From a virus: 64,000 nucleotides of DNA. Where the stretch lies: the IMG/VR virus record IMGVR_UViG_3300045988_171839, positions 1-64,000 of that record; one strand, 5' to 3'. The notes under the pieces are model-generated. The model was not told the DNA's origin, made no database searches, and was given only the letters and a program-made list of their open reading frames with translations. Positions 8,001-61,894 of the stretch are shown in pieces. How positions within the stretch are numbered: position 1 is the stretch's first letter; every line of letters starts with the position of its first letter. The position numbers and the translations under genes are program-made.

Positions 8001-11000
8001 TGCACGATACGCGTCTGTACCTGCAAGTCTGTTATAAGCACCATAATTACGTATAGCATATTCATTGGCAATAAGGGCATATTTTTCAACCTCTTGTTTG
8101 TCAAACAACATCGACATATTCTTTTTGAAGGCCTTCTTTGCCTCCATAAGAATCTCAGGATCATTTTTAATTTTACTTTCGGAAAAGGCGTGCGCGAGAG
8201 TCCCGATTAAAGTACCCACAACACTCTTCCTATCTTCTTTAAATTGCTCCAAATCGGTATAATCGAATTTTTTTGCCTTTTGTTCAAGACTAAGGCTGCC
8301 CCACCTGGTCTTAGAATCTTTAAATCCTATTATTTTCCCCTGCAGATAGCCTGCGGCAGATTCGTCCCCATAATAGGGATTTAAACTTGCCGCGATACCC
8401 GTTGGTGTCATATAGGTTTTTCCATAGCGTTCGTTAAGACCGCCTCGGCCTTGTTTAGCAAGCAAGTCTCGAATTTCTTCTAATATACTAACAATTTTAG
8501 GATCAAATCCTGTTTTGTTGCCCTTTTCCTCTGTAACTGTCAGTTTGTTGATGGCTTTGATAAGTTCTCCAGCTGCCGTGCCCAGTCCTGTTGGGCCGGT
8601 TTCTTCACGGAATCGTCCGTGTGCTTGTTTAGCTTTTGCCAAAAAGTCATCATCTAAATTACCACCAAACGCCTTTAATGTGCCTACACTAAAACCAAAT
8701 TGATTAAAAGCTCCGTTGTTCAGCGCATTAAGTAATAAAGATTTAAACTGGGCTTCATTACCTCTGAAACTTTCCCAATCCCGATATTTATCAATGGTTT
8801 GGGCAATAGCGTCCAAATCAGCTTTGACAATACCAGACTTTTCCAAAGCTTCGTACGCTGAAGCATTTTGGCTCATCGCTAAAGTGCCCAATATTCGTTG
8901 GGAACGCCAGGCCTCTAATTTGTTGTCTTTATAGATTCCTTGTTCCGCACCGGCTTGAATCACATCGTTCACATTTGCTTTATTTTTGTAAACTTCATCA
9001 ATAACTTTGTTAATCGCGATATTAAAAGACTTGTCAAGTTGCTCAGCGAACGTTTGTTCATCAACTTTGTCCAAATCGGAACCAAGCGTGGTTTGCATAT
9101 CTTGGATTGCAACGTCCCAAAGTTTCTTAGAAGAAATCGCATTTTGCTCAGCTTGTTCTAGTGCTTCAAAAACAAACGACCCCTTAATAAAGTCGATAGT
9201 TGAATTCAAATCTCCGCCTACAACAGCACCCGTACCCAACTTTTGTAACTCTAAAACATTTCGAGCACCTTTTGCAACGTTGGACCAGTTACCTGTTTTA
9301 TCTTTCGCCTGGTTTTGATAGGAACGCACTATTGCCATTTGCTTATCGTTTAACACTTGATTTTTCGCCAAATCAAGAATTACCGATGAGTCGGCGTCGG
9401 ATGAGGTAATAGCCGGAATGTTCTTTCCTATAACTCTATATAAAAATTCATTATAACGTTTGACTCTTTCCAAAGTTTCGTCTAACCAGCCAAACTGTTC
9501 GGGAGTAGCGTCGATCAGCTTGGCAGCCTGTCGAAGTTGAACTAACGCGGTGTATAATTTATCACCGTCAAAGTCCCCCATGATCAATTTGTTGAGACCA
9601 CGGTTACTTTCGATTACGTTTGTTCCTAGGCCCTCTTTACCAAAGACCAACCCTCCGTATTGTAAGTTAATGGCTTGGCTATAAGGCTGCCTCCCCAATA
9701 CAGCTTCAACACCGCGACTTAAAATAGGATTCGTGCCGCCATAAAAATTCTGATGTTCTTTGGTTCCCGTGGTAAAAATATTGGTCGCAAAATCGACCAT
9801 TTCGGCAAAATTCTTAAAGTTTTGATTGGCGAGAGCTGATTCGATAGCTTTGTCTTGCCCCTGTTCTGCAAAAAGTTGTAAATATTGAGCCAAGTTTTCT
9901 ACAAAGTCGTCGCTCTTGTAAGCGTTCAACCCAAGTGCGACACTTGCTCTAATATGTTCTTTATCGACATAGGTACCGCTATCCTTCATGCGTTCGCGCA
10001 AGGCGTCAACTTCATTCGCAGTATCTGTCGCTACAATATTGGTATTTTCGCCATAAAACGTAGAGTACGCTAAACGTTTCTTATATCTCTTATCATATCT
10101 CTCTTGAGCCGCTTGTCTTGCTTCTTCTTGGTTATGAGCCATTTTTGCCAAGAATTGCTCATTGACCGCCCCGCCAGTGTTTTCAAAGTTGTAAGCCTCT
10201 GCCTTTAAGACAGCGGTTAGCAAGTCTTTCTTTTCAGATGCTGATGCGCCCGCTTGAACTGCCATAAGCAAGTTTTCCAAGCTTTCGTTATAATCCCCAA
10301 TTTCATCAGTGTATTTGCCCAAATCGAGATATCGCGCTTCTCCCATATCCGCGCCCAAATCAACCAAAATTGTTGCCAGCTTTGCTTGAGTTTGGTCCAT
10401 AGATTGCAACTTCTCATCAAGTTTACCCCAAATGGTTTCATCTCTGTATTCGGGATTACTTTGTCCGTTGTCTAATTTCTCAGTGCGACGAAGTGTGTTT
10501 ATGTCAATAAAGTGTGCTTGATTGCCATACATGTCTCTCGAGCCAACAACGATTGTGTTAACACCCGCATTTCGATTGATATAATCAGGGTTTAACCCCG
10601 CTCGCGAACCTATTAGTTGAGCTTGACGCTCAATATGTTCATTATAGTCTCGTATACGTTTCTTTTTTTCTTCGATATCCTTTGCGGTTGCTCCAAAAGC
10701 GACAAGTTGGACAGTTTGTAAAAAATCACTATTCTCGGGGGTTATTTCCACACCGGCTGCGCGAGCCGAACGTTCAAGATCTTCTACTTCCCAGTTTGTT
10801 GGCAAGCTGGCCGCACCTCTTGGTTCATATTCACCATAACGTGCGCCAACAACATCAGTAAAGCTAGACGCAAGGGCCTTAGTTTGTAATTTCCCATCAA
10901 CAATTTCATATCCATTTTTTCCGCCCGTCAACTCATCTAACAGATATAAGGTTTCACCCGTAAATTTGGTACGAGCCGATACGTTTGAGCCCACGTACTT

Positions 11001-13361
11001 GTCCAAAGCATCGCTAAAGCTCAATTTTTTCAACAAAACGTCAACTAAGGCTTGTCCAATGTTGGTCGACAGGTTTGTGGTATCAAGGTTGTTCACACTG
11101 GCTTCAATTTGACTCTTATCTAGTTCATTTATCGCGTTGTCTATAGCCCGAGTTACAAGTGGTCCGATATTTCTTGAGCTGGTTTCCTCTCTTGCTGATA
11201 TTACCGTCGCCCGCGTCTTGTCGGGCGTTAATTCAACTCCCGTTATTGTCGAAATGGCTTTAATAAGTTCTTGACCTACCTCACGATATACGACACGCAG
11301 GTTGCCGTAGGCACTATTTGCTTTTGTGCCCGTATGTGCCCTTACTAGTTCTCTACCCGTTAAGGTCACATCTCCTGTCTCGGGATCAACATAGAGATCA
11401 ACCTTGCCTTTTGCGGCCTCTCGGCCTTCGGCAGCCAAAAGTTTTTTATAGGCGTCTTGTTTGGTTTGAGCACTTTTCTTTTTCTTACCCTCTAGCCCGT
11501 ATTTTGACAGGTCAGCTTTAGAAATTTTAACCGATACGCCCTCTCGAATTGTATCCAAATTCTCAATTTCATCTTTGGACACCAAGGCCATTCCATCAAC
11601 CAAACCCTCGATTAAGTCACGATTTTTATCAAGGAGTTTCGCCGCGTCTTGTTTCTCCTTGTCTGTGCTCGTAAGCAAATTACCAACTTGTTCAAACAAT
11701 CGGTTGATGTCAACCTCTATATTTTGTACACGTTCGGGTGGACCTTGTTTAGCATAAGCTTGGATATCGCGACCTTGTATTTTACGAGTTACGAGGGCCA
11801 TTTTGTCCTTCATTTCTTTGGCGCCCCACAGTCGATAATGGCCAGAATCTTCTTCGCTCATTGAACCAACAGAAGGTAGCCAAGAAAAGTTTTTATTAAA
11901 TTCTCGCATTACTGCGTCTGAGAGACCGTTTTTCATTTGTTGGTCTCGTAAACTCTTTTGTACGCCAATATCCCGCTCCCCAAATCCAGCAAAGCTAACA
12001 AACATTTTAGAAAACAATCTAACGAGCTCTGCTTCAGTAAGGGTAGAACCTTGCGCTTTCTCAAATTTTGCTAAACGTTTCGCCTCATTCTCAAAACGAG
12101 TTCTGCTTTCAACTAACGCTTTATCTGCGCCAACACCATACAAGTTGTCTTGTCGATCAAACTTTGAGGTTGATTTGTGAACAGTTTCGTCTTTGATGTC
12201 CCCAATACGTTTACGCGCACTTGCGATTGTTTTGGGAGCATGTTGAGACATCTCTACAAATTTTTGCGCCTCAGCATCCGATACTTTTACTCTCTTAGCT
12301 TGATCAACCACATAATCGTCATTTCGCTTATCTAAGCCCCCAACCGCAAAAGAAGCAGTGGCAGCATTTTGACGATTTACCTTTCCCGTTCTATCAAAAG
12401 CATTGACACTATTTTTATCATAAACAATAACTTTAATCTCTTGAGAACCCTTATCTCGAGCAAAACTGACGCCATATCCCGCCTTTTGCATATTAGCAGC
12501 ATATTCTGCTGCTTGTTTGGCACGCTTTTTGCCCTCTTCCGTAATTTTACGGGGATCGAAATATTTAAGAACTATAGCTTCTGCTTCTTTCTGCGTCGAG
12601 AAAGCGTTTTGTTGTATTTTTTCTGCGACCTTTGTTACTCTACGAGCACTACCACTAACGTCCTTGTTGGTTATCGTTGGATTGTAATCGGGATTTTTTT
12701 GTTGTTTGGCCTTTTTTGCCATATCTAAGAATTTGGCAATTTCTCTATTCACCGCTGGCGAGCCACTCGTGGATGAAAAGTCCGCTAAAGTGGTGTTAGC
12801 AAGTGCTTTCTTGGCTTTTTTAAATTGTTCACTGAGGTCAGTAGAATCTTTTAAAACCGATTTGTACTCTTTGTTAATTTGTTCAAAGATGGCTCTATAA
12901 CCAGCAGAATATTTATTTAAGTTATTTAAACCTAAACCCTGATTTATCTTCGCCATAGCCAAGCGGCCAATTTCATCATCGTTTAAGCTACCGATAATTT
13001 TATCCACCAACGGCAACACTAACGTTCGAGTAGCTTCGTGGACTACAGCGGGAGGCAATTTGGCCATCTGTGTTGACAAACTCGAAAAAGTGTCTTTAAG
13101 AGTTTTCCTTAATTCACCAGGAAATTGTTCAAAATTATCTCGAATCCAAGCAAGCGCCTTTTGTTGGGCTTGTGTGATTTTTTGTTGTTGAACTGCAGCC
13201 TCTAACTGTTTATCAGTTGTTGTTTTTAAAGCGTCTGTTAAATATGTGGCTGTCGTCCCTAAATTCTCTGCGGTAAGTTGCGAATCTTCGAGCATCGCAA
13301 TAATTGCACTATCAGCCGAACCAACGCTTGTTAAAATGGGAGTATAGTCCATTCCTTCCAT
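2016..13361 (-). CDS. Giant (3,781 aa) multidomain tail tape-measure protein
   Basis: Single uninterrupted 11.3-kb ORF. aa ~2215-2400 (nt 6162-6719) match the TP901-type tape-measure core as I recall it (LSKLGMIEAGQATTYLTSMIKGFKL...VDKLTAVDMEAAVSAGGIAAAMQ). There are Gly/Ala-rich hydrophobic segments (nt ~4950-5110) and long coiled coils. Extra N-terminal signatures are described in the findings. Confidence 0.85.
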   Translation of the reverse strand: MEGMDYTPILTSVGSADSAIIAMLEDSQLTAENLGTTATYLTDALKTTTDKQLEAAVQQQKITQAQQKALAWIRDNFEQFPGELRKTLKDTFSSLSTQMAKLPPAVVHEATRTLVLPLVDKIIGSLNDDEIGRLAMAKINQGLGLNNLNKYSAGYRAIFEQINKEYKSVLKDSTDLSEQFKKAKKALANTTLADFSSTSGSPAVNREIAKFLDMAKKAKQQKNPDYNPTITNKDVSGSARRVTKVAEKIQQNAFSTQKEAEAIVLKYFDPRKITEEGKKRAKQAAEYAANMQKAGYGVSFARDKGSQEIKVIVYDKNSVNAFDRTGKVNRQNAATASFAVGGLDKRNDDYVVDQAKRVKVSDAEAQKFVEMSQHAPKTIASARKRIGDIKDETVHKSTSKFDRQDNLYGVGADKALVESRTRFENEAKRLAKFEKAQGSTLTEAELVRLFSKMFVSFAGFGERDIGVQKSLRDQQMKNGLSDAVMREFNKNFSWLPSVGSMSEEDSGHYRLWGAKEMKDKMALVTRKIQGRDIQAYAKQGPPERVQNIEVDINRLFEQVGNLLTSTDKEKQDAAKLLDKNRDLIEGLVDGMALVSKDEIENLDTIREGVSVKISKADLSKYGLEGKKKKSAQTKQDAYKKLLAAEGREAAKGKVDLYVDPETGDVTLTGRELVRAHTGTKANSAYGNLRVVYREVGQELIKAISTITGVELTPDKTRATVISAREETSSRNIGPLVTRAIDNAINELDKSQIEASVNNLDTTNLSTNIGQALVDVLLKKLSFSDALDKYVGSNVSARTKFTGETLYLLDELTGGKNGYEIVDGKLQTKALASSFTDVVGARYGEYEPRGAASLPTNWEVEDLERSARAAGVEITPENSDFLQTVQLVAFGATAKDIEEKKKRIRDYNEHIERQAQLIGSRAGLNPDYINRNAGVNTIVVGSRDMYGNQAHFIDINTLRRTEKLDNGQSNPEYRDETIWGKLDEKLQSMDQTQAKLATILVDLGADMGEARYLDLGKYTDEIGDYNESLENLLMAVQAGASASEKKDLLTAVLKAEAYNFENTGGAVNEQFLAKMAHNQEEARQAAQERYDKRYKKRLAYSTFYGENTNIVATDTANEVDALRERMKDSGTYVDKEHIRASVALGLNAYKSDDFVENLAQYLQLFAEQGQDKAIESALANQNFKNFAEMVDFATNIFTTGTKEHQNFYGGTNPILSRGVEAVLGRQPYSQAINLQYGGLVFGKEGLGTNVIESNRGLNKLIMGDFDGDKLYTALVQLRQAAKLIDATPEQFGWLDETLERVKRYNEFLYRVIGKNIPAITSSDADSSVILDLAKNQVLNDKQMAIVRSYQNQAKDKTGNWSNVAKGARNVLELQKLGTGAVVGGDLNSTIDFIKGSFVFEALEQAEQNAISSKKLWDVAIQDMQTTLGSDLDKVDEQTFAEQLDKSFNIAINKVIDEVYKNKANVNDVIQAGAEQGIYKDNKLEAWRSQRILGTLAMSQNASAYEALEKSGIVKADLDAIAQTIDKYRDWESFRGNEAQFKSLLLNALNNGAFNQFGFSVGTLKAFGGNLDDDFLAKAKQAHGRFREETGPTGLGTAAGELIKAINKLTVTEEKGNKTGFDPKIVSILEEIRDLLAKQGRGGLNERYGKTYMTPTGIAASLNPYYGDESAAGYLQGKIIGFKDSKTRWGSLSLEQKAKKFDYTDLEQFKEDRKSVVGTLIGTLAHAFSESKIKNDPEILMEAKKAFKKNMSMLFDKQEVEKYALIANEYAIRNYGAYNRLAGTDAYRAAEEKVRLNEDSFIVKGKTDAIYTSKRMAENGNDYQMFNVVDFKNEAKLGAKSIEQVLIYVEMYRRIKQDLDEIWRKEGETAALTKMTEQTLLSEATLRQLHQSLDVSAQLVQSYQGKTKVYNIADVPRNISQKLVEGMSLTAEEQKIISNSATASPQLTQTMSPDFQKKYQKATGETFGAEDFGTISVNYEKKLAEEQALKEQLDKAKGQYGDDSLVFKKLTKYYQDLVEEIKAFEKIRKEKIKELALTSDMVNEFTSSAKKEVDHSVAMGDLHFGYEKILKDDEKQRLLAQKQREAVLNQYKRYNDQIAKTEKDMLVLDKQSRTTPSKLERGIQADRGQIDILKAELKELVEKRNLLVENNKLTQAETAEADAQLQTKRELNRLKVAGMAKGAGNWLDVIGSGVKNTITRMFDYNGVYRILNRITQGLRQLVQQVNELDVAMFNLQVVSGDSRQEVSSLINDYGKLAQQLHTTTTQIAASANEWLRQGYEAGQANELIKASTYLSKLGMIEAGQATTYLTSMIKGFKLEAADAVNIVDKLTAVDMEAAVSAGGIAAAMQNVATTAQLAGLSIDKTIGYLSTMIEVTQRDPSSMGMALRTVLARYGNVKAGTFTNMTGIESSDADLENVNDIEKVLGKVGIRIRENAQEFRDFGDVIDELSEKWQKYDSVTKNAIATAMAGVRQRESFLVLMENKDRADELEDVSSLSRGTADTKYAAYEQTLMAAKADLQTSLQSLAKSIQDSGLLIAFTKLANILVKMVVPGFNALASMLWARNSFKLTEQIKYSLNQRKTAPVASLGFFAQKTQQEALRRQEWQQEFYKKKEGSNQTYVDRLLGKTSPKTALSSLTKALDDASIAVRGFTGAIKGSPVQSTTSSPVQSKTPVVDPRRLVYIGSHDVGEWHNIDEYAKGSRFRRPNRAKIRQDLRNGSITTDDVRNIKQMFYQDRQQTKALLGTHIKGNVAGAVGAGVTSALTTGFSQEGSAGAKATAGITAGALTGVGALFGPMGAAIGSTLGSILGPVFAKLVDKEENERKQRAEAAQKQLDALNSLNNTFDEVHDYTEKEYLTSEAILAIKESVNSIDEQMSAQGLDFDDYLKQAAVKMNLGEDFQTIEGIRELLTAADEKTRQKAQEVFDLAQSMAKVQTTQESKALSNMSAEEQRVYWRTLDKEYIKQAFITSGLEQMSLRQLSQTNLDDAIKQVAAQFEKLELTPKSFALYDSKGNVTDEATKYITDQLRKSDRMQELLHGSVLTLSEALQDKDKNANVIESFASALGVSTTRLEEMSKQLGALKLSDLVKSSSQLREMLNGLYGILDSYYETGYLDLDAQEKIISNYPEYVDFISDPSKIVDHINQITAGVKELHIRNSLNDWAKNEKNAEIYVRDFLKSYQNGKYEGLFTDKRYFGELSTPEQMLQRIELLLNADDENEAVLNAVKNKIIEGMQKHEAIATALAEQLDNSKKLESVNKYLDKSYEKQINALEEQKSALEQINSQREYENKLIEAKIKLENAQNEKKKVWREGVGWVYEADTAAIADAQKELEDLDNEKKINELQTQIDELQAQREYLGDIASTQELEGLKKVYESWQKEIGISNTGQAQALHYFAEAYTKIQRLNLDTTQTGSDGKKTEDYLKNISDKRIEALGAAKGAFEAGITEAPASQQDYTVGAVRQVAAYNDNLSKFKTQADAYLQAGGSKEELVKELGLTTDDKGTAVQKLDEILNRETVRLAPVRGARFDHGLYNNVSSVYTTWQPNSTNDAGFLAAKPSETYVLLNGGKWANVSRMFHIEHNKDLREPKYSGLIFGETKGTKQLFWNYDGIIYKASLRKDDYQKTQGVDDSFTGLPFYDSSSYAANPETALALEGWNSTKKSTFRGDSYATGTLSTAGGLSLVNDDPQYGLEGVITPQGTLTALPSKSGVVPADLTRNVWQLGEVAPNLIKQLVDINGKFSHTTGFGTDESFNVEHLDVHMVAQPGFDMDDFVRQLQAARNLTRHS

Positions 13362-44355: not shown

Positions 44356-44937
44356 TTAACTCCTTGTCATCACCGATGTGCGCAGTACAGCTAAGAATTC
44401 TTGTAAGGAATAATCAAGAGCGAACAGCTCATCTTCATTTTCTCGCACGAACACCGGGAGTTTAAAACATAAGATCGGATTTTTACTACCAACCACCCTA
44501 AATTCTAATTTAAGCTTCACGGCCTGATGCACCAATTCTAAAAACTTCTTATGATCCTTCATCCCCAACAATTGCATAATTTGTGGTTCGTCATATTTGA
44601 TCCACCCTGAGTCGTGCCAATTTGTTTTAGCCACATATATTAACACCCCAAACAAAGCTCGAACTTCCTCATTACTAATATTTAATAAAAAGTTCCATTC
44701 GTCCTCGTAAACCACGAAAGTTGTTAATGTATTTTTGGTATCAAGAGGGGCTTTTAATAAACAGTCCACAATTTGTTCAAAACATTGGTTATTTAATTCA
44801 AACCCGCGTTCACACTCAAGGAGAAATTCTCGTATAGAGCCGTCGGTCATGCCTTCGGCTCTTAACGAATTAATGATTTTTACAACGCTGCTGCCTTTCT
44901 CGATCGATTTGTTACAAATTTGTTCTTCAACTGTCAT
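44356..44937 (-). CDS. Hypothetical protein
   Basis: Start moved to the ATG at 44937 after GGAGGAG. Confidence 0.4.
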   Translation of the reverse strand: MTVEEQICNKSIEKGSSVVKIINSLRAEGMTDGSIREFLLECERGFELNNQCFEQIVDCLLKAPLDTKNTLTTFVVYEDEWNFLLNISNEEVRALFGVLIYVAKTNWHDSGWIKYDEPQIMQLLGMKDHKKFLELVHQAVKLKLEFRVVGSKNPILCFKLPVFVRENEDELFALDYSLQEFLAVLRTSVMTRS

Positions 44938-47809
44938 AGTCACAATCTCCTCCAAATAAGTTATCAGCATCGAAGTCAAAATCTAAATCTTGCCCCAAAA
45001 TTTCTTCCCACGCCGCTTGATTCCAATCGTCATCATCACACAACTCGCTGACTCGATCTTCGTGAATTACTTGTAAAGTGTATCGATTACCAAGGTATTC
45101 AAATCCAACTTCGTTTTTCACGGGAATTTGGACAATTCCACGAGGGATTAAATCCAACACGCTTTCGTCTAAAATGTCCCAAGCAAAATCCCAATTAAAC
45201 TGTTTGTATTCTTTTGATAAACAATGGCAGTAGTAAAGCAATTCTTTGCCACTGAACGACGCAGACTCAATCGCCTCTTGAATTTCCGTTCTGATAAATG
45301 TCATTGCTCCGAATCTAATCTCATCATATTCGTCACGATTCGGTAAATCAATATTATCAACAATGCTCTCCAAGGTTTTTACTTGTTTACGCGCTGTATA
45401 TTTGCGATACAAATCTTTAACAATAGCAAACCGTTCTTGATCAAATTCAAAACAATCCTCAAAGGTGGGTAACATACTTACCGCGTTTTTGTTGAAATTA
45501 ATATCAAAATCGACATTTTCAAATTCCTTACACAATATATTCATTATGCACGGTGCGGTGATTAGTGGCGAATACTTTTGATAACGGCGTACCAAATTCA
45601 TCTCGTCTTCTGACTTATTGGGTTTGGTTAAAAGTTTTTTAAATTTAATACCAAACATATTTTTGGACGCCATATTGTAACTGTTTTCGTATTGCTTGAA
45701 CTGTTGGTTTAACTCTGGATATAAGTATCTAAAGAAATATGGTTTTTTAGAAATAACCATCGAGTTTCTTTTATATTTATCCGCCTTAACCGCATCAGTG
45801 TCATCATCATTAATTCGGATGAATTTCTTCCACTCTTTCGGCAACTCCGGCGCGGCTGTTCCTTTAATGCGATCAATTTCTTGACCAACAATTTCTCGAA
45901 GTAATTTAATACGCAAAGTGAGTTCGTCTCTTTGTTCTTTTTGGGTGTCTTTTTGGAAAATTCCCTTCATTGCGTGCATTATTGTTGCGCAGTTAGAAAA
46001 ACCTCCAACCCCAGTTCCCAAACCGCGAATATCGGTCGCGATTGAATTCTTTAAACAAATTTTCTGAACCGGCACCGCACCTTTCTCATATGTAATGACA
46101 TTATGCCATTTTTGCGCACCCTTGATAAAGATTTTATTGTCCGTGGACATTACTACGTCGCCGTCAAAATCACTGTCAGAATGTCGTAATGTTGAAGTAT
46201 CATATATACTGTAAATGATTCCACTCTTAATATATTGATACCAATAGTCCATATCTTCGGACGATACTACTTTACAAGGGTTGTGTTCGTGCGAGTCAAT
46301 CATCGGACTGCGGCACAGGTCAACACAATCCACGTTTCTCTGCCTCCAAAAATTTGAATACACTTGGTCGGGCCCAAGTAACCCTACCGGTTCCAACCCA
46401 AGCGCCGATTGACACTGTGCTACGGGATCAGAAATCATAAAACTATAATTTCCTCTCACCCATATCTTACCAATCTTCGCCTTGTTTATCGTCTCAGCAA
46501 TATTGCGATATATTTTCTTCTGTACATGAGCGTCTTCCAACATTATCGGGTTTTTAATAATCGCCCTCAACGCCGTGCTTTGCGCCCCATTATACAATTC
46601 TTTAAAACTGACTTGTTCACCCTTGCAACCCAACATATACAACATTGTATACAATTGGTCACCTGAGCAAATCTTTTTAATCCAATCAATCGTCGGTTGA
46701 ATCAATTCCAGAATATCATCCTTATTGATATCCAACACTTGCAGATATTGATAATTGGCCAGCACATATTCGTCATCGTACTTTTTATTATATCTCGCAA
46801 CTCCCCACTGAATACCAGCCGCATCTACATACTTTTGATATTCATACCAAGATACATAATATTTATACATCTTGAATTGAGATTCACTCAATATAACATC
46901 AATATCCTCCAACCTGTGTGAGATTCCCCACCGGTCACGAATTGAGTCAATACCGTGTGCAGCTCCAAATTCTCGAAAATCAAACGGAACCAAGCACCCC
47001 TTCACAAAAACGCTACGGACAACGAACGACGACGGCGTATATGATAAATTCATATCTTCTGCCCACAGAGCCGCAAACTTAGGATCTATCAATCCCTGTC
47101 CATCAGCGCAGTTTAACTCGATATCCATTATTCTTTCTTTAATCTGTTTTTTCCCAGTCTCGGGATTGGGGCAAATCCAATCAACCGATTGATCCTTCAC
47201 CACATTAAAGAAATCCTTAACCACGCATACTCTCGGGGTTCGCACCCACATAACACTTGAAAACGCCAACGCAAAATACGCATGATATTTCGCCAAATTC
47301 ATTTCTGAAATTTTGGTGTCCAACCCGCACATCAGGTTTTTGTACAAGGTGTCATAAAGAGCTTCGTTAATAAAGGTAATAGTGTTGCGCCTCATTTGTC
47401 CCGAGCCGCAACAAAACCTCACATAATGAATACCGTTAACGTCAAAACCATTCTTGGCTAATTCTTTATATTCTTTCTTGGTCACGACTTCAACGTTAAT
47501 AATATCTTTAACAAACAACGCATCTGTCAAAAACCGATTAAGAATACCAGCTTCCTTGGTTCGTCCCTCTCTCTTCGCTGCTCTTATAGCGCGACGAAAT
47601 TGTTGGACATCGTTAAAAATCTCTCGATGACTTCTGGTATCATTATAATATTTTCTGATTTGCTGAAAAACCAGATTATCACCAATTGATACCAGCGCCC
47701 CATCGCGAGCTGCCTTAGATTTTGAATAATTAACTATATTTAAGTTGTTCTCTACAATAAAACTAGATTTAAGTTTAAAAACTTGATATAGGTTTTGTAA
47801 ATTAGGCAC
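44927..47809 (-). CDS. Single-subunit two-barrel polymerase candidate (YonO / cellular-RdRP-like)
   Basis: 960 aa with a GTG start after GAGGAAG. Signatures: DSDFDGDVV (nt 46157-46171), CRSPMIDSHEH ~50 aa upstream (compare NRAPTLH...NADFDGD in beta-prime), and YVRFCCGSGQMRRNTITF (compare F.xFSxSQLR....W.F of RdRPs). Confidence 0.55.
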   Translation of the reverse strand: MPNLQNLYQVFKLKSSFIVENNLNIVNYSKSKAARDGALVSIGDNLVFQQIRKYYNDTRSHREIFNDVQQFRRAIRAAKREGRTKEAGILNRFLTDALFVKDIINVEVVTKKEYKELAKNGFDVNGIHYVRFCCGSGQMRRNTITFINEALYDTLYKNLMCGLDTKISEMNLAKYHAYFALAFSSVMWVRTPRVCVVKDFFNVVKDQSVDWICPNPETGKKQIKERIMDIELNCADGQGLIDPKFAALWAEDMNLSYTPSSFVVRSVFVKGCLVPFDFREFGAAHGIDSIRDRWGISHRLEDIDVILSESQFKMYKYYVSWYEYQKYVDAAGIQWGVARYNKKYDDEYVLANYQYLQVLDINKDDILELIQPTIDWIKKICSGDQLYTMLYMLGCKGEQVSFKELYNGAQSTALRAIIKNPIMLEDAHVQKKIYRNIAETINKAKIGKIWVRGNYSFMISDPVAQCQSALGLEPVGLLGPDQVYSNFWRQRNVDCVDLCRSPMIDSHEHNPCKVVSSEDMDYWYQYIKSGIIYSIYDTSTLRHSDSDFDGDVVMSTDNKIFIKGAQKWHNVITYEKGAVPVQKICLKNSIATDIRGLGTGVGGFSNCATIMHAMKGIFQKDTQKEQRDELTLRIKLLREIVGQEIDRIKGTAAPELPKEWKKFIRINDDDTDAVKADKYKRNSMVISKKPYFFRYLYPELNQQFKQYENSYNMASKNMFGIKFKKLLTKPNKSEDEMNLVRRYQKYSPLITAPCIMNILCKEFENVDFDINFNKNAVSMLPTFEDCFEFDQERFAIVKDLYRKYTARKQVKTLESIVDNIDLPNRDEYDEIRFGAMTFIRTEIQEAIESASFSGKELLYYCHCLSKEYKQFNWDFAWDILDESVLDLIPRGIVQIPVKNEVGFEYLGNRYTLQVIHEDRVSELCDDDDWNQAAWEEILGQDLDFDFDADNLFGGDCDYDS

Positions 47810-49034: not shown

Positions 49035-49092
49035 CATATGATGACATTTTTGTAAAGTTTTAAAAATTTTTTTATTTTTGTGTCATTGTAGG

Positions 49093-49121
49093 TTGACTTT
49101 TCTTTTCAAAGTTGTTATAAT
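49093..49121 (+). promoter_or_regulatory. Sigma70 consensus promoter P1 (rightward)
   Basis: TTGACT (49093-49098), 17 nt, TATAAT (49116-49121). Confidence 0.65.
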
Positions 49122-49123
49122 TT

Positions 49124-49387
49124 GGGTGGTGGGCGGGTATAGATAAGAAGATCTTTCTTATTTATATATAAATATATAATAATTATAAATATTAATATAA
49201 ATAATATTAATTATAATTAATATTGTTATATATTAAAAAATTAATAATATATTAAAATATAATTAAATATATATAACATATTATCATATAACATATATTC
49301 TATCATTATAACATATAATATGTTAAATATATATTAAAATATAATATAATAAAAAATAGTGATCTCATTCTCCCGACCACCCACCCC
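49124..49387. other. A/T island bounded by an imperfect G-rich/C-rich inverted repeat; candidate origin / DNA-unwinding element
   Basis: GGGTGGTGGGCGGG (49124-49137) faces CCCGACCACCCACCCC (49372-49387). By my count there are 9 G/C in the 200 nt 49161-49360. TATAACATAT occurs three times (49272, 49287, 49307). The palindrome AACATATAATATGTT lies at 49310-49324. Confidence 0.5.
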
Positions 49388-49517
49388 TATTATACACAGA
49401 AAAATACCATTTGTCAACTACCAATGACAGAAAATACAAAAAAAATAACAAATATTTTTCCCAAAGAAAAACTACCACACATACTCACAGAATCTTAAAG
49501 AATTATGTCATCTACAG

Positions 49518-51451: not shown

Positions 51452-51757
51452 ATGAAATATTACAGTGAGATGACCGACAAGGTCTATGAAACAAAAGAAG
51501 AGTGCGAAAAAGCCGAAGAGGCTATTGTCGCAAAAAAGAAAGCCGAAGAAGAGAAACAGCTGGCTCTTAAAAACGAACGCGAGACGAGGTCGAAGGCTGT
51601 CGTCGACGCCTTTAAAAAGGCGCGAGAGGCTGAGACCGAAGCACAACGGCTGCTGAAGGAGTTCGTCAAGGACTACGGCTCTTTCCATATAAGTTATAAT
51701 GGGAAGAGTTCGATGCCGTCGATGTTCGATGTCTTGAATGACTTTTTCTGGTTTTGA
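51452..51757 (+). CDS. Hypothetical charged helical protein
   Basis: AAAGGAG SD. Followed by tandem terminators. Confidence 0.55.
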   Translation: MKYYSEMTDKVYETKEECEKAEEAIVAKKKAEEEKQLALKNERETRSKAVVDAFKKAREAETEAQRLLKEFVKDYGSFHISYNGKSSMPSMFDVLNDFFWF

Positions 51758-51761
51758 TTAA

Positions 51762-51792
51762 AAAGAGGAGTGCCTGGCTCCTCTTTTTTTTT
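51762..51792 (+). terminator. Intrinsic terminator
   Basis: AGAGGAG-tgcctgg-CTCCTCT followed by T9. Confidence 0.75.
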
Positions 51793-51810
51793 ATGTGTGA
51801 GGTGAGATGA

Positions 51811-51842
51811 GCGCTGACTACGGATGTCGGCGCCTTTTTTTT
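51811..51842 (+). terminator. Intrinsic terminator (second of a tandem pair)
   Basis: GCGCTGAC-tacggat-GTCGGCGC followed by CTTTTTTTT. Confidence 0.7.
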
Positions 51843-51912
51843 ATGGGGGAATTGGGAGGTGGGGTGGGGAAATGGGTTTATGAATATTTTTGTCCTGAAA
51901 TTGTATTTTCGA

Positions 51913-51941
51913 TTGAAAATATATTTCAAAAAGTGTAAATT
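51913..51941 (+). promoter_or_regulatory. Possible sigma70-type promoter for the large RNA
   Basis: TTGAAA, 17 nt, TAAATT. Confidence 0.35.
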
Positions 51942-51944
51942 TCA

Positions 51945-52856
51945 CTTTCAGCTTGCCTTTTTTAAAGGTGAAGACTGTAGTGAATTGCGCTTTGCTTGGA
52001 AATATGACGCTCTGCCGTCAACAATTGAAGAACAATTTCCGTGTCGAGTTTGTACTCGGCACGTTAAACATATAGTTCCTTGTGGCCTTCTCGATTGGCT
52101 CTCGAGAATAGGAAGAATTACCAAATTTATTTGGCAATACTTCCGGGATGAAATCTTACCATCCACAAGGAACTCCCGCCTGTTTCCTTTCGGGGGAACA
52201 GAGGCCAACCACTGGCGTTATAAGTGGGCTACCCAGATGAAGGGGCCTCAAACGAGGTAAGTAGTCTAGCCAACGAAAAATTCATCAGTTCCCGTAACAC
52301 GTATGGAGCTAAAGGGAAAGCCGTACGTGTTAGCGTTGGTGTGTTTTCACACCAAATTGGAAGCCCGACACTGCATTCAGGTGTGTTGGGCTGCACATAA
52401 AATGAATGAGCTGGTCGCTCAGGATAATAAACTGACCTGTAGAGGAGTCTACAGTAGAGAAATCTACATTAAATAACCTCCGAGCCAAGCGGAAACAGCA
52501 TTGGTGTGTTAACACCAATTTGGCATTAGTATCTGGGAGTACTAACCCCAGGCGCAGAGACAACTGCGTGTGTCCCACTTACAAAGAGGGCACAAGAGGG
52601 TGCAAACCCATCTCGGCAAGCCTGATTGTCGATATCCCTAAACGTGCCAGGGTGCGAAACCTGGTGAAGCGACATTCGTCGTCAGCGGAAACGCGGAGCC
52701 CCCTGAAAAGAGCAAAGGGCATCGTTGAAAGGATGGTTGCTGATTGTCTAACAACAGCAATGGAGGTAGCCAAAGGGATAGAAGTAATGGAGCTCAGTGC
52801 TGACGTGCTCGTCGTGGCTCTGCATCATCGAAAGGTGAACCAACAGCACAAAAACA
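51945..52856 (+). ncRNA. Large (~0.9 kb) structured non-coding RNA candidate, unclassified (GOLLD/ROOL-like context)
   Basis: No ORF with an SD, and GC is visibly higher than in flanking genes. Many perfect helices are present. One is an 11-bp long-range pair, GTTCCTTGTGG (52075-85) with CCACAAGGAAC (52163-73), that encloses nested hairpins. Others include TTGGTGTG/CACACCAA (52336-55), ATTGGTGT/ACACCAAT (52500-19) and a 12-bp stem TAACACGTATGG/CCGTACGTGTTA. Confidence 0.55.
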
Positions 52857-52857
52857 T

Positions 52858-52886
52858 CTCCTAGCTCCCAGGGAAAAGGGAAAAGG
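52858..52886 (+). promoter_or_regulatory. SD-proximal conserved box CTCCTAGCTCCCAGGGAAAAGGGAAAAGG (copy 0)
   Basis: The identical 29-mer recurs at 53053-53081. A variant lies at 53612-53638. Each copy ends 6-8 nt before an ATG. Confidence 0.5.
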
Positions 52887-52892
52887 AAAAAA

Positions 52893-53000
52893 ATGCAAAA
52901 CGAATTTGCAATCGGATTGTATGTCCCTGGTGTCTACAGTCCAGCCGAAGAAGATTTGCAAGATCTTCTCGACTGCTTTGAATACGCAGCCGCAATTTAA
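52893..53000 (+). CDS. Small ORF (35 aa), hypothetical
   Basis: The ATG follows the conserved SD-proximal box. It falls below the ORF-track size cutoff. Confidence 0.3.
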   Translation: MQNEFAIGLYVPGVYSPAEEDLQDLLDCFEYAAAI

Positions 53001-53008
53001 CAACTCAA

Positions 53009-53081
53009 CGCTACTGGCGGGACAAGCGCAAAAATGCCCTCAACCAATATAACTCCTAGCTCCCAGGGAAAAGGGAAAAGG
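53009..53081 (+). promoter_or_regulatory. Conserved leader element: 33-nt box plus SD-proximal box (copy 1)
   Basis: CGCTACTGGCGGGACAAGCGCAAAAATGCCCTC (53009-53041) is identical to 53569-53601. Confidence 0.5.
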
Positions 53082-53088
53082 CAAACTT

Positions 53089-53385
53089 ATGCTAAATCAA
53101 AACAATAACCCCGTGCTTATCAACGATACAATCGCTGATATTTTGTATCACAAAATCCAAACCCAATATAAAACGTTTGGAAAACCCGTGATTCATATCA
53201 CGGACTTCGAAGTGTTCCAAGCGGCATTAGAAAGCCGCAATCCAGCGAACATTTGGTTCTATAACTCTGAGTTAGTCGCGCAATCCCTCAATAAAATCAA
53301 AGGAGTAACTGCCAGTTACTTCTGCGAGGATGAAGACGAACATGACGGCGAAATCACCGTCGTCCTGACCGAATCTATCAATTAG
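53089..53385 (+). CDS. Hypothetical protein
   Basis: ORF directly after the conserved leader box. Confidence 0.55.
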   Translation: MLNQNNNPVLINDTIADILYHKIQTQYKTFGKPVIHITDFEVFQAALESRNPANIWFYNSELVAQSLNKIKGVTASYFCEDEDEHDGEITVVLTESIN

Positions 53386-53562: not shown

Positions 53563-53568
53563 CAGCTA

Positions 53569-53638
53569 CGCTACTGGCGGGACAAGCGCAAAAATGCCCT
53601 CCCCAACGTTTCCTCGCTCCCAGGGATAAGGGAAAAGG
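53569..53638 (+). promoter_or_regulatory. Conserved leader element: 33-nt box plus SD-proximal box (copy 2)
   Basis: The same 33-mer as copy 1, followed by CTCGCTCCCAGGGATAAGGGAAAAGG. Confidence 0.5.
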
Positions 53639-53646
53639 ATAAGTTT

Positions 53647-53907: not shown

Positions 53908-53931
53908 TCCTCTATGTATTCTCTTAAGCAA

Positions 53932-53986
53932 GATGGTCGTCACGGTAAGAGTCCGTGGCCTGATGAAGGCATGAGCCGAAACCATC
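53932..53986 (+). ncRNA. Hammerhead ribozyme, type III (copy 1)
   Basis: GAUGGUC^GUCACGG-UAAGAGU-CCGUGGC-CUGAUGA-A-GGC-AUGA-GCC-GAAA-CCAUC. Stem III is 6 bp, stem I is 7 bp and stem II is 3 bp. The core CUGAUGA...GAAA is intact and the GUC cleavage site lies after 53938. Confidence 0.85.
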
Positions 53987-54069
53987 AGCAATGGCAGCAA
54001 TGCCCGATGCCTATTCTTCGTGAGTGAATGGAAGCACCGCTAACGGAACAAAAAAGGAGGTCAACAAAT

Positions 54070-54471: not shown

Positions 54472-54699
54472 GTTGTCGTGGGATATGGTCCCACAATTGC
54501 TCTCTTACCGCTTTAAGAGAGATAGGTTACCCCTCCGAAGGGGAAGAGGAACGTTTATTCAACTGCTCACAAGCGAGTGAGTGGGAACAATTCTCTTATT
54601 AAGGAGCCGTGAAATACAATACACCCAAGCGGGGGTGGGGAGGTTAAATATGTAAAAACAATACAATGTCCCGAGTAAGATTAACCCTTGCTCGGGATA

Positions 54700-54754
54700 G
54701 ATGGTCGTCACGGTAAGAGTCCGTGGCCTGATGAAGGCATGAGCCGAAACCATC
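54700..54754 (+). ncRNA. Hammerhead ribozyme, type III (copy 2)
   Basis: The 60 nt 54699-54758 are identical to 53931-53990. Predicted cleavage is after 54706. Confidence 0.85.
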
Positions 54755-54795
54755 AGCACAAACAAAAAAATCTATACAAAAAAGGAGGTGATAAA

Positions 54796-55314: not shown

Positions 55315-55670
55315 CGGTCAGAAGTCGCCGGTGCAATCTGACTAAGACTCGGAGCATACACTGCTTGGCAACAGAAACGTGTCGACCTGTTTATCAAGGT
55401 GATACTTGGTGAAACAGAATGTAACTTTATTGGCGTCCAGAGCAAGACGTTAAATTGCTCTGCGTAAAACCACCACCGAAAGGTGTCCGTAGGTCAAGTC
55501 GGGATAAAGGTTGAGACCGCATAATCACAAAAGCCTCCCAAACTGGGGGGTGAGGTCAGCAAGCGACCGAGCAGCTAGTAAAGCTTGCCTGCAACTCGTT
55601 GAGGATACAACGAGCTCACAAGGGGTTTTCATAGGCCCAAAACGCCTAGGCACAGAAGTGCGGGCGTACC
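55315..55670 (+). ncRNA. Long structured leader or ncRNA candidate (~360 nt)
   Basis: ORF-free and GC-enriched. Hairpins include GTCAGA...TCTGAC, CACC-GAAA-GGTG (55474-85) and CAACTCGTTG-aggataca-ACGAGCT. It shares a GUCCG..GUA(A)GGUCAAG string with 56078-56095. Confidence 0.35.
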
Positions 55671-56105: not shown

Positions 56106-56180
56106 CCCCACAGGTTCCCGCCAGACGGTTCTGGCGCTGTGGGGGTTATGGGCTCAAGAGGTTCGACTCCTTAAGAGCCC
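56106..56180 (+). ncRNA. tRNA-like module: long hairpin plus T-loop minihelix (copy 1)
   Basis: CCCCACAG[GTTCC CGCCAGA-CGGT-TCTGGCG]CTGTGGGG, then GGGCTCAAGAGG-TTCGACT-CCTTAAGAGCCC. The second part is a 12-position helix capped by a TTCGA T-loop. Confidence 0.5.
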
Positions 56181-56205
56181 AAAATAAAAAAAAGGAGAAA
56201 TTCCA

Positions 56206-56962: not shown

Positions 56963-57037
56963 CCCCACAGGTTCCTGTCAGACGGTTCTGGCACTGTGGG
57001 GATTATGGGCTTAAGAGGTTCAACTCCTCGAGGGCTC
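56963..57037 (+). ncRNA. tRNA-like module: long hairpin plus T-loop minihelix (copy 2)
   Basis: Same architecture as copy 1. The inner stem TGTCAGA/TCTGGCA versus CGCCAGA/TCTGGCG shows a compensatory C-G to U-A change. The T-loop is TTCAACT. Confidence 0.5.
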
Positions 57038-57124
57038 AACAGCCGCTTCATAGTGCGGCAACCCGTAAAAACAAATTTTCTTAATGGCGAATCGGGTTCC
57101 ACAGTCAGGAAAAGGAGAAATACT

Positions 57125-57567: not shown

Positions 57568-57810
57568 ATGAAAAATTATACACCAGAGCAAATAGCCGCA
57601 ATTGTCAGCTTTGTTAATGATTTTGTCACCTGGGTAAACACCCAACTCGATAAAGAAATGTCAAATATAACCGAAATTTCCTTCGCGGTTAAGCCCGAAT
57701 ACAGGGCAAAAGTCGAAGGTAAAACGGCGGCCTATAGCCAATGTGTTAACCACTTGGCGGGCGTAGCAAAGCAAATAGTCGCTGAAGGGTTCAGTGAAAT
57801 ACTAAAATAA
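57568..57810 (+). CDS. Hypothetical protein
   Basis: Start moved to the ATG at 57568 after AAAGGAGG. Confidence 0.55.
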   Translation: MKNYTPEQIAAIVSFVNDFVTWVNTQLDKEMSNITEISFAVKPEYRAKVEGKTAAYSQCVNHLAGVAKQIVAEGFSEILK

Positions 57811-57883
57811 CACCGCAAGGCCCATCCCATCCAGGGATGATCGGTGCAAGTCCGATGCGTAGAAATACGCGGCGCTCATGGTG
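57811..57883 (+). promoter_or_regulatory. Four-way-junction leader RNA with T-loop-like hairpin (copy 1)
   Basis: CACCGCAAGGCC, three hairpins, then GGCGCTCATGGTG. The hairpins are CATCCC/GGGATG, ATCGG-TGCAAGT-CCGAT and GCGTA-GAAA-TACGC. A further hairpin and the SD follow up to 57955. Confidence 0.45.
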
Positions 57884-57955
57884 GGCATAACGACATCATC
57901 CCCGAAAACCATTAATATTGCTAGGGGTCCCATGGCAGGGAAAGGAGAAACCGTT

Positions 57956-61255: not shown

Positions 61256-61747
61256 ATGTCAATTAAAATCAACAAAACTGAAGCAACCAAAAACATCATC
61301 AACGCCCTCGACGCAATGAAAGCGGACGAGAATATCAACCTCGGCATCGAAGAAATTGAATTTCCCGATGGAAGCAAAGAAAAGTTCTATTACAATGGTG
61401 AGGCCGACAAGCAAGCTGCTGTGCATTTCGCACAGATTTGTATCGATGTTTGCGCCGGCGACAGTGACAAAGCCAAACGCATGATGGCGTCTTGTTTTGT
61501 ATTGCTGACCAATGGGTACAATGTTGACGAAATTGTACCCTCTGCGGAAAGTGAAATCGACACCGAAACTTATATTGATTATAAGAAAGGTGTTTTGCTC
61601 ACGCCGTACGCGTCGGTTGTCGCGTCTCTCACCGAAGACGAACTCAAAGCAACAAAGGGTAAAAAGAATGCCCTGACTAAATCACTCTTGCTCGAAAGAG
61701 CAAGAACTGATTATTTAGAGGACGCTCTCGAATCTTACGAGAGTTAA
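61256..61747 (+). CDS. Hypothetical protein
   Basis: AAAGGAGG SD. Confidence 0.5.
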   Translation: MSIKINKTEATKNIINALDAMKADENINLGIEEIEFPDGSKEKFYYNGEADKQAAVHFAQICIDVCAGDSDKAKRMMASCFVLLTNGYNVDEIVPSAESEIDTETYIDYKKGVLLTPYASVVASLTEDELKATKGKKNALTKSLLLERARTDYLEDALESYES

Positions 61748-61748
61748 T

Positions 61749-61820
61749 CACCGCAAGGCCCGCACGAAAGTGTGAACGGTGCAAGCCCGTTGCCCTCTTA
61801 GGAGGGTGGCGCTTATGGTG
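61749..61820 (+). promoter_or_regulatory. Four-way-junction leader RNA with T-loop-like hairpin (copy 2)
   Basis: CACCGCAAGGCC, three hairpins, then GGCGCTTATGGTG. The hairpins are CGCAC-GAAA-GTGTG, AACGG-TGCAAGC-CCGTT and GCCCTC-TTAG-GAGGGT. The outer hairpins differ in sequence from copy 1 but keep their pairing. Confidence 0.45.
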
Positions 61821-61894
61821 TTCATAATGGCATCATCTTCGTAAAATAAAAATCTTGCTAACCGAAGACTAATGGCATAGAAAGGAGAATCATT

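Follow-up and report, generated by a model that had tools for sequence, protein, structure and literature searches.

Large phage RNAs and the new locus

To our knowledge, very few structured RNAs exceed approximately 500 nt, apart from rRNA, RNase P and self-splicing introns. OLE, GOLLD, ROOL, raiA and HEARO are the few known bacterial and phage classes, and each of them has revealed unexpected biology, the latest being RNA-only nanocages. Here we describe a further large RNA, encoded in a 64,000-nt stretch of an uncultured tailed phage (IMG/VR virus record IMGVR_UViG_3300045988_171839, positions 1-64,000; this whole stretch is called the window, and all coordinates follow its numbering). The segment from 51943 to approximately 52850 on the + strand is a gene for a large multi-domain structured non-coding RNA of about 0.9 kb. 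The best explanation of the whole, to which we assign a probability of about 0.6, is an autonomous, probably trans-acting accessory ornate RNA that represents a new family.

GOLLD (RF01998) is a multi-domain RNA of more than 800 nt encoded by phages and prophages, with pseudoknotted parts, a variable part and no known protein partner (PMC12286853). The new RNA resembles it in large size, phage location and the combination of conserved pseudoknotted parts with a variable part. However, it has no match to the GOLLD covariance model, it immediately follows a promoter as the first element of an operon of small open reading frames (ORFs), with no tRNA genes near, and its most conserved part is central (52232-52289), whereas in GOLLD this is the 3' half. 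Adjacency to tRNA genes is frequent in GOLLD but not obligatory. ROOL (RF03087) is borne by phages and prophages, has a length of approximately 600-660 nt, multiple pseudoknots and a poorly conserved internal linker, and is non-essential, and abundant where measured (PMC12286853). The new RNA is likewise an ornate phage-borne accessory RNA with a pseudoknot and a poorly conserved internal region, but it does not match the ROOL model, is longer (726-1111 nt), has other conserved sequences and no tRNA-island context, and comes so far from one human-gut phage lineage. Both GOLLD and ROOL form RNA-only homo-oligomeric nanocages (PMC12286853).

OLE, raiA and HEARO are, like the new RNA, large, with an extensive structure supported by covariation and with conserved nucleotides outside helices; in contrast to them, it is phage-encoded, matches none of their models and has no oapA/B/C-like, IscB or TnpB genes nearby. 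Structured 5' leaders also lie between a promoter and the first cistron, start with a 5'-terminal hairpin and are co-transcribed with the downstream genes. The new RNA, however, is 5-10 times larger than a typical leader, contains no terminator/antiterminator or platform sequestering the Shine-Dalgarno (SD) box, and is independent of the downstream gene. Riboswitches and attenuators are not a good description of the locus, as no + strand terminator follows the RNA, the last helix ends before the SD box, and the downstream ORFs differ. The same holds for group I/II introns: there is no Rfam match, a promoter rather than an exon is located upstream, and no ORF lies inside. What is observed is an RNA of more than approximately 500 nt, non-coding, with covarying helices in three domains, a pseudoknot and conserved unpaired runs, that is, the features of a large ornate non-coding RNA.

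All 4227 families of Rfam 15 were compared by cmscan with the whole window at the gathering score and with 51700-53100 at E <= 10 with permissive filters. The latter search yielded no match to GOLLD, ROOL, OLE, raiA, HEARO or group I/II introns, nor to RNase P, tmRNA, 6S, SRP or rRNA. The best match in the region is RUF4 with 21.5 bits (E = 0.17), the gathering score being 55. Since none of these families was matched at the gathering score or at E <= 10, the RNA is not GOLLD, ROOL, HEARO, raiA, OLE or an intron. ARAGORN found no tRNA or tmRNA in the 64 kb. The literature on ornate phage RNAs yielded only work on GOLLD, ROOL and OLE and no description of this RNA, and the IMG/VR csRNA catalogue, as far as its accessible part goes, contains only motifs of 29-151 nt (PMC10690425). 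Thus the family is previously undescribed, while its descriptive kind, the ornate phage non-coding RNAs, is known. The initial annotation had proposed a large structured phage RNA of unknown, possibly new class, and this is borne out by the Rfam comparison, the absence of coding and the covariation in three domains.

Homologues and architecture

Homologues were collected by three routes. The 101-aa protein encoded upstream led to 15 related IMG/VR loci on viral contigs of 42-141 kb, three of which share DNA homology with the RNA region. A search with an invariant 23-nt motif produced six contigs from metagenomes, of which at least three carry a human-gut label, and one contig binned as a Treponema metagenome-assembled genome, which is probably a phage contig placed in the wrong bin; a second invariant motif returned the same three IMG/VR contigs and nothing new in IMG/VR. 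Finally, the upstream protein and its relatives were looked up by exact match and a covariance model was then searched, which added four distinct variants and two contigs whose core domain and upstream gene are identical to those of the window. Overall, the family consists of 14 distinct sequences (the window and 13 others) of 726-1111 nt with pairwise identity from 49% to 96%, and the homologues reside on uncultured phage contigs of 125-146 kb, nearly all from human gut. They group into three clades, A, B and C, and mosaic forms: in L047 a clade-A middle lies between clade-C ends, helices H3 and H4 of L026 and L023 are clade-B/C-like, and the 3' insertions of the window are common to L023-25. 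The mosaic variants keep the same architecture. The core covariance model R1 has no match in 30-odd related loci without the RNA, and blastn in its distant mode, used to look for similar DNA in cultured phages, found none in 50,697 phage records.

The features of the locus and of the RNA are as follows.

51760-51798 and 51811-51843, + strand: two intrinsic terminators (stems 51760-88 and 51811-33), with a T run after each
51872-51941, + strand: conserved promoter region, comprising the invariant ATGGGTTTATGAATATTTTTGTCC box (51872-95), TTGAAA (51913-18) and AAAAAGTGTAAATT (51928-41) containing TAAATT
51943-52070, + strand: 5' domain with the 5'-terminal hairpin H1 (51943-82), H1b (51998-52040) and H1c (52040-63), from per-sequence folds
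52074-52174, + strand: three-way junction closed by long-range helix H2 (52074-85 with 52163-74) and holding H3 (52088-108) and H4 (52146-64)
52095-52099, + strand: 5' strand of the pseudoknot, H3 loop UUGGC, pairing with GCCAA at 52269-73
52180-52201, + strand: hairpin H5, CUGUUUCC...GGGAACAG, conserved in sequence, 100% paired, with changes only from U-A to U-G
52232-52289, + strand: conserved core of small hairpins Pd and Pc, then the nearly invariant, mostly unpaired GGUAAGUAGUCUA-GCCAA-CGAAAAAUUCAUCAGU (52256-89)
52292-52399, + strand: H7 (12-14 bp stem, 52292-336), H8 (52336-55, clade A only) and H9 (52363-91)
52400-52532, + strand: variable middle of short hairpins, including the second UUGGUGUG hairpin (52501-18), with large insertions and deletions between homologues
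52533-52850, + strand: 3' domain, with Ha (52533-51), Hb (52552-69), Hc (52570-93), Hd (52596-614) and He (52614-31)
52633-39 with 52774-80, + strand: long-range helix Hf of the 3' domain, enclosing Hg, Hh and Hj
52707-18, + strand: conserved loop AAAGAGCAA(A/G)G within the Hf-enclosed Hg/Hh/Hj part
52789-95 with 52816-22, and 52797-802 with 52844-49, + strand: Hk and the terminal helix Hl at the end of the 3' domain
52848-52890, + strand: junction and ribosome-binding element (..CCTAGCTCCCAGGGAAAAGGGAAAAGG..), recurring at 53043-85 and 53600-42, each time just 5' of a small ORF

The minimum free energy of 51945-52870 is -326.9 kcal/mol versus -272.7 +/- 7.2 kcal/mol for dinucleotide shuffles (z = -7.56 on the + strand; the opposite strand is less extreme, z = -5.69). 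Across the family the 5' domain comprises 3-5 hairpins; two of these, H1d and H1e, are present in most homologues and missing from the window copy. The hairpin at 52111-44 inside the three-way junction is an insertion specific to the window. Earlier reading of the window had described the region as helix-dense, with an 11-bp long-range pairing (52075-85/52163-73), a 12-bp stem, two near-duplicate hairpins and GNRA-like loops. All of these are present: the long-range pairing in fact has 12 bp (52074-85 with 52163-74), the stem is formed by 52295-306 and 52321-32, the hairpins are at 52336-55 and 52501-18, and GNRA loops close, for example, 52685-94 and 52826-37; the density of helices exceeds chance, as seen both from the above z-score and from their covariation in homologues.

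Three runs are invariant or nearly so, namely GGUAAGUAGUCUA (52256-68), CGAAAAAUUCAUCAGU (52274-89) and AAAGAGCAA(A/G)G (52707-18), in homologues that are otherwise 50-60% identical. In the run 52256-89 a single R position is the sole variation among 13 sequences, and two bases differ in L047. Such invariance of unpaired runs against so diverged a background suggests tertiary contacts or a binding/active site.

Compensatory substitutions

The three domains were tested separately, with the partners slid by 1-3 columns as a control and, in addition, 500 shuffles. Structure-aware alignments were made with covariance models, and the order of helices, derived by RNAalifold per clade and by per-segment folds, is the same in all clades despite differing sequences. 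For the core (52071-52399), model R1 was based on a hand-drawn structure and on two sequences, the window and L002; in the alignment of 14 sequences (an earlier version had 10), 97.2% of pairs are canonical, 23 of the 72 pairs are changed on both sides compared to 2-5 in the slid controls, and the covariation score is 0.262 (slid, 0.045-0.061). For the 5' domain (51927-52085), model R2 was built from three clade-A sequences and matched clades B and C at 31-40 bits; again in 14 sequences, the respective values are 94.8%, 25 of 51 pairs (slid, 2-6) and 0.341 (slid, 0.032-0.049). The 3' domain (approximately 52533-52850) was aligned by plain MAFFT, using sequence only and fitted to no structure (alignment A3); its six helices are 90.5% canonical, with 18 of 32 pairs changed on both sides (slid, 2-5) and a score of 0.474 (slid, 0.065-0.124). 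None of the 500 shuffles matched the observed percentage of paired positions, compensatory count or covariation score in any domain, and in the 5' domain the extra pair types were also above every shuffle.

Individual helices follow the same pattern. In H2, four of ten pairs are changed on both sides (e.g. G-C to U-A), and the helix is recoded from GUUCCUUGUGG/CCACAAGGAAC to GUUCCUUUUGC/GCAAAGGAAC; in H3, two of six. H7 has 5 compensatory pairs out of 14, and H9 has 8 out of 9. Comparison of H7 in the window with that of L002 shows C-G changed to A-U, and clades B and C have a wholly recoded outer part of H7. Both small core hairpins covary, Pd from CCC/GGG to GCC/GGC and Pc from CCUC/GAGG to CCUU/AAGG. 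Five of the six pairs of long-range Hf are compensatory, and the terminal Hl was also covered by the test of the 3' domain. All five pairs of the pseudoknot UUGGY (52095-99)/RCCAA (52269-73) are canonical in all sequences; its one variable position covaries from C-G to U-A in four of ten sequences, and L047 has U-G for U-A. Hence compensatory changes are abundant in the helices proposed initially, the long-range pairing and the 12-bp stem among them. No consistent covariation was established in the alignments of the variable middle (52400-52532).

G-U pairs are frequent (e.g. UA:7/UG:7 and CG:5/UG:5/UA:4) and would be A-C on the opposite strand. This, together with the direction of the promoter, indicates that the + strand is the functional one. 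As judged from the alignments, all parts but the variable middle are held by compensatory substitutions over 14 distinct sequences, and 51943-52850 is almost certainly an RNA under selection for its structure.

Two further observations concern the core. The invariant UUCAUCAG (52282-52289) is an exact complement of the CUGAUGAA core of two hammerhead-like repeats located downstream (53964-53971 and 54732-54739; see below). It is also largely complementary to the Pd loop GAUGAA of the RNA itself (52236-52241; 6 bp, with one mismatch in clade C). This complementarity could be a coincidence, an internal pseudoknot or a trans interaction. The apical loop of H7 (52307-52312) contains a 4-nt palindrome that varies among the variants (AGCU, GCGC, CUAG; L024, L026, L023). 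It is the sole hint of a multimeric assembly, but such a palindrome is close to what chance would give, and the hairpin at this place is another one in clades B and C. Covarying symmetric kissing loops, which these palindromes recall, are known in GOLLD and OLE.

Coding potential

Two ORFs listed in the region, 51859-52260 (133 aa) and 52520-52864 (114 aa), have GTG or TTG starts and no SD box, and neither has a match in Pfam or PHROG. In none of the 14 homologues is there an SD-preceded ORF of more than 9 aa. Each of the six frames contains 4-25 stop codons in all homologues, the longest ORFs differ in position and strand, and homologues differ by large insertions and deletions whose lengths are no multiples of three. 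The initial reading, that approximately 900 nt lack an SD-preceded ORF, therefore stands, and it extends to the homologues, in which no ORF keeps its position or strand. A protein-coding region was rejected on these grounds. Stop-codon recoding was rejected as well, because the neighbouring genes, including a 3781-aa ORF, are read through in the standard code.

Boundaries and genomic context of the RNA

The RNA begins directly 3' of the conserved promoter, which is itself 3' of the two terminators. The latter close an upstream operon of a methylase gene and small genes and shield the transcription unit of the RNA from read-through. The promoter (51913-51941) is sigma-70-like, TTGAAA-17-TAAATT; the motif 51872-51941 occurs once in the window and, in the alignments, is kept in all related phages whether the RNA is present or absent. 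The edges of the RNA cassette are the predicted transcription start at the 5' side and, in clade A, the junction element 52848-90 at the 3' side. The GC content of the region is 0.477, compared to 0.411 in the whole window and 0.385 just upstream. These data agree with the initial annotation, which had placed two strong terminators at 51762-51842, a possible promoter at 51913-51941 and a GC-enriched region at 51945-52856; the latter is now refined to approximately 51943-52850.

Comparison of loci indicates that the RNA is a discrete, optional, recombining cassette, as it is present or absent among phages with the same upstream protein and as homology breaks at its start. The contigs encoding the exact 101-aa protein of the window have the RNA in six of the ten places shown and lack it in the other four; loci with the commonest variant of the protein (P0005) have it in none of ten cases. 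The window and such RNA-less phages have identical flanks up to 51948, where their homology stops, to resume in different downstream cassettes. In relatives without the RNA, the same promoter is followed 50-100 nt further on by an SD box and a 52-aa ORF. The first ORF downstream of the RNA differs, being a 35-aa ORF in the window, the 52-aa MKFY ORF in clade C and still others in further phages; the clade-C ORF is the same 52-aa ORF that follows the promoter in the RNA-less relatives. As different first ORFs follow it in different phages, the RNA is evidently independent of the identity of the following gene.

Several sequence elements occur at the junctions. The ribosome-binding element CCTAGCTCCCAGGGA(A/T)AAGGGAAAAGG (52848-52890, 53043-53085, 53600-53642) is unusual and purine-rich and lies 6-10 nt before each ATG. 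A second junction element, an identical 34-nt ACGCTACTGGCGGGACAAGCGCAAAAATGCCCTC, is located at 53008-53041 and 53568-53601, 5' of small ORFs. These elements appear to be seams where the phages shuffle early-gene cassettes.

In L004 (6481-6990), L008 and L048, the same promoter is followed by no large RNA; instead, there is a terminator-like hairpin with a T run, then 3-4 TTTCAATTGA(T/A)TC repeats and approximately 400 nt that contain no SD-preceded ORF. This is a different putative leader or non-coding RNA at the same site. In distant relatives (L050-L055, L060-L062) the 101-aa gene is followed by a gene of a 320-aa KTI12/AAA_33 P-loop kinase, possibly polynucleotide-kinase-like. The kinase was considered as an alternative cargo in the slot of the RNA and rejected, as the conserved promoter motif is missing from these loci and their organisation is different.

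Possible function and alternative explanations

The RNA would form the first ~0.9 kb of a polycistronic transcript, made probably early and by the host RNA polymerase, and might then remain attached as a 5' leader or be freed by host RNases. The 5'-terminal hairpin and the compact domains would give it stability. It would adopt a compact tertiary fold and act via this fold rather than via the gene behind it, possibly as a scaffold, decoy or self-assembling particle acting on a host or phage macromolecule during infection. It may thus be a functional analogue of GOLLD and ROOL, unrelated to them. Taken separately, the trans-acting accessory role is a tentative assignment, at slightly less than even odds.

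A number of points weigh against the interpretation as an autonomous accessory RNA. The family is narrow: its 14 distinct sequences come from a single phage lineage and make up about three clades and some mosaics. No + strand terminator or recognised processing site is present 3' of the RNA, which leaves room for the role of a cis-acting 5' leader. The sigma-70 hexamers place the transcription start at approximately 51947-50, yet the covarying pairs of H1 begin at 51943. No partner gene was found, nor could a partner protein, a ligand or a signal for multimerisation be established. The RNA is complementary to other parts of the window only at the chance level (24 matches of 11-12 nt, approximately 28 being expected), and an antisense regulator of phage genes was rejected for this reason. 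As to the covariation, the sequences are related, so that one event may be counted several times and the events are fewer than the cell counts suggest; besides, two of the three pair counts (core and 5' domain) rest on model-fitted alignments.

The main rival is a cis-acting 5' leader of an early polycistronic mRNA, serving for protection from exonucleases or RNases or for tuning translation or antitermination of the genes behind it. We consider it unlikely. Indeed, the RNA lies between the promoter and the first ORF and no terminator follows it; however, the first ORFs and their ribosome-binding contexts differ between phages, and the 3'-most helix closes 10-40 nt before the SD box, which is not sequestered. 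A stable hairpin stands at the very 5' end in all homologues, and RNA-less relatives also have a leader, shorter and sometimes with a hairpin, but simple stabilisation needs no 730-1100 nt with pseudoknots and invariant unpaired runs, and closely related phages do without the RNA.

A large ribozyme or self-processing RNA, which would cleave itself out of the transcript or act on another RNA, is quite improbable. It would suit an operon rich in self-cleaving ribozymes, the same transcription unit containing two twister-sister ribozymes, a weak twister-like match and two hammerhead-like repeats; the RNA itself matches no ribozyme family. The pseudoknotted core does have invariant unpaired nucleotides, and the 3' end is not defined by a terminator, but the sequence at the 3' boundary is not conserved across clades.

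It is very improbable that the RNA is a highly divergent GOLLD, ROOL, OLE, raiA, HEARO or group I/II intron missed by the covariance models. Its size and phage context are indeed like those of GOLLD (>800 nt) and ROOL (~600-660 nt) (PMC12286853), but none of these families was listed at E <= 10 in the permissive search of 1.4 kb or at the gathering score in the whole window, there are no tRNA genes near, and neither intron-encoded proteins nor exons were found, the promoter being directly upstream.

Lastly, decayed coding sequence or recombination debris, hairpin-rich by chance, might be suspected from the dispensability in close relatives, the mosaic cassette region and the poorly conserved middle, but this reading is effectively refuted by the covariation, as more than 60 base pairs over three domains are kept by compensatory changes, far above the slid and shuffled controls, runs of 13-34 nt are invariant in sequences otherwise 50-60% identical, and all six frames of all homologues contain many stops.

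Thus an autonomous accessory RNA is the explanation we prefer. One may go further and suppose that with this RNA a third class of ornate phage RNAs begins, unrelated to the other two and working as a machine made of RNA only. It could then be a particle that self-assembles into multimers, as ROOL and GOLLD do, or else a structured decoy or ribozyme that puts a host factor out of action early in infection, and gut phages would exchange it as a cassette for counter-defence or host takeover; this more specific version is a doubtful conjecture.

The phage and other elements in the window

The window is part of the genome of an uncultured tailed phage with portal, large terminase and tail proteins encoded on the - strand. 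On the + strand, the RNA is the first element of a unit of many small ORFs, which also contains the ribozymes and the hammerhead-like and tRNA-like repeats described below. The similarity of the large terminase to those of Bacillus and Clostridium phages (approximately 25% identity) and the strong AAGGAGG-like SD sequences suggest a host from Firmicutes. The 960-aa ORF 44927-47809 (- strand) is assigned to PF05183 ('RdRP' fold) in the gene tables of identical contigs. We take this to be the family and fold of the single-subunit RNA polymerase YonO of SPbeta, and the phage is thus probably equipped with an RNA polymerase of its own. A single 3781-aa ORF at 2016-13361 (- strand) is found in the structural (tail) gene block. 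This - strand block and the + strand block diverge, and at approximately 49050-49500 they are separated by an extremely AT-rich stretch (GC content 0.13-0.18) with short AT repeats, possibly an origin or a region of divergent promoters.

The only Rfam matches at the gathering score in the whole window are two twister-sister ribozymes, 57808-57888 and 61746-61825 (+ strand; 70.5 and 61.5 bits, gathering score 34), both between small ORFs. A weak type-P1 twister-like match at 55461-55521 (+ strand; 30.6 bits, E = 0.003) is below the gathering score. The 60-nt repeats at 53931-53990 and 54699-54758 (+ strand) are 100% identical and occur also in L004 and L040-L045. They show the complete arrangement of a type III hammerhead, with GAUGG/CCAUC as stem III, a GUC site, GUCACGG/CCGUGGC as stem I, CUGAUGA, GGC/GCC as stem II, and GAAA. 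Rfam gave no hammerhead match at E <= 10 on 91 nt, and these elements may be a variant hammerhead.

Another pair of repeats, 77 nt long and 87% identical (56106-56182 and 56963-57039, + strand; also L004, approximately 7330-7400), has a long hairpin and, at the end, a minihelix that resembles the T-arm and acceptor of a tRNA (GGGCUC..GGUUCGACUCC..GAGCCCA). ARAGORN found no tRNA in them, and Rfam gave only a weak tRNA-Sec-like match of 18 bits. In L004, the tRNA-like element is directly 3' of the hammerhead-like element.

Implications

The interest of the RNA for RNA biology is high, limited by its narrow distribution. A new class of 0.7-1.1 kb would be an independent example in which to ask why giant RNAs are worth their cost to a phage. 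Moreover, metagenomes already hold natural isogenic phages with and without the RNA, which makes possible unusually direct comparative and, eventually, experimental tests.

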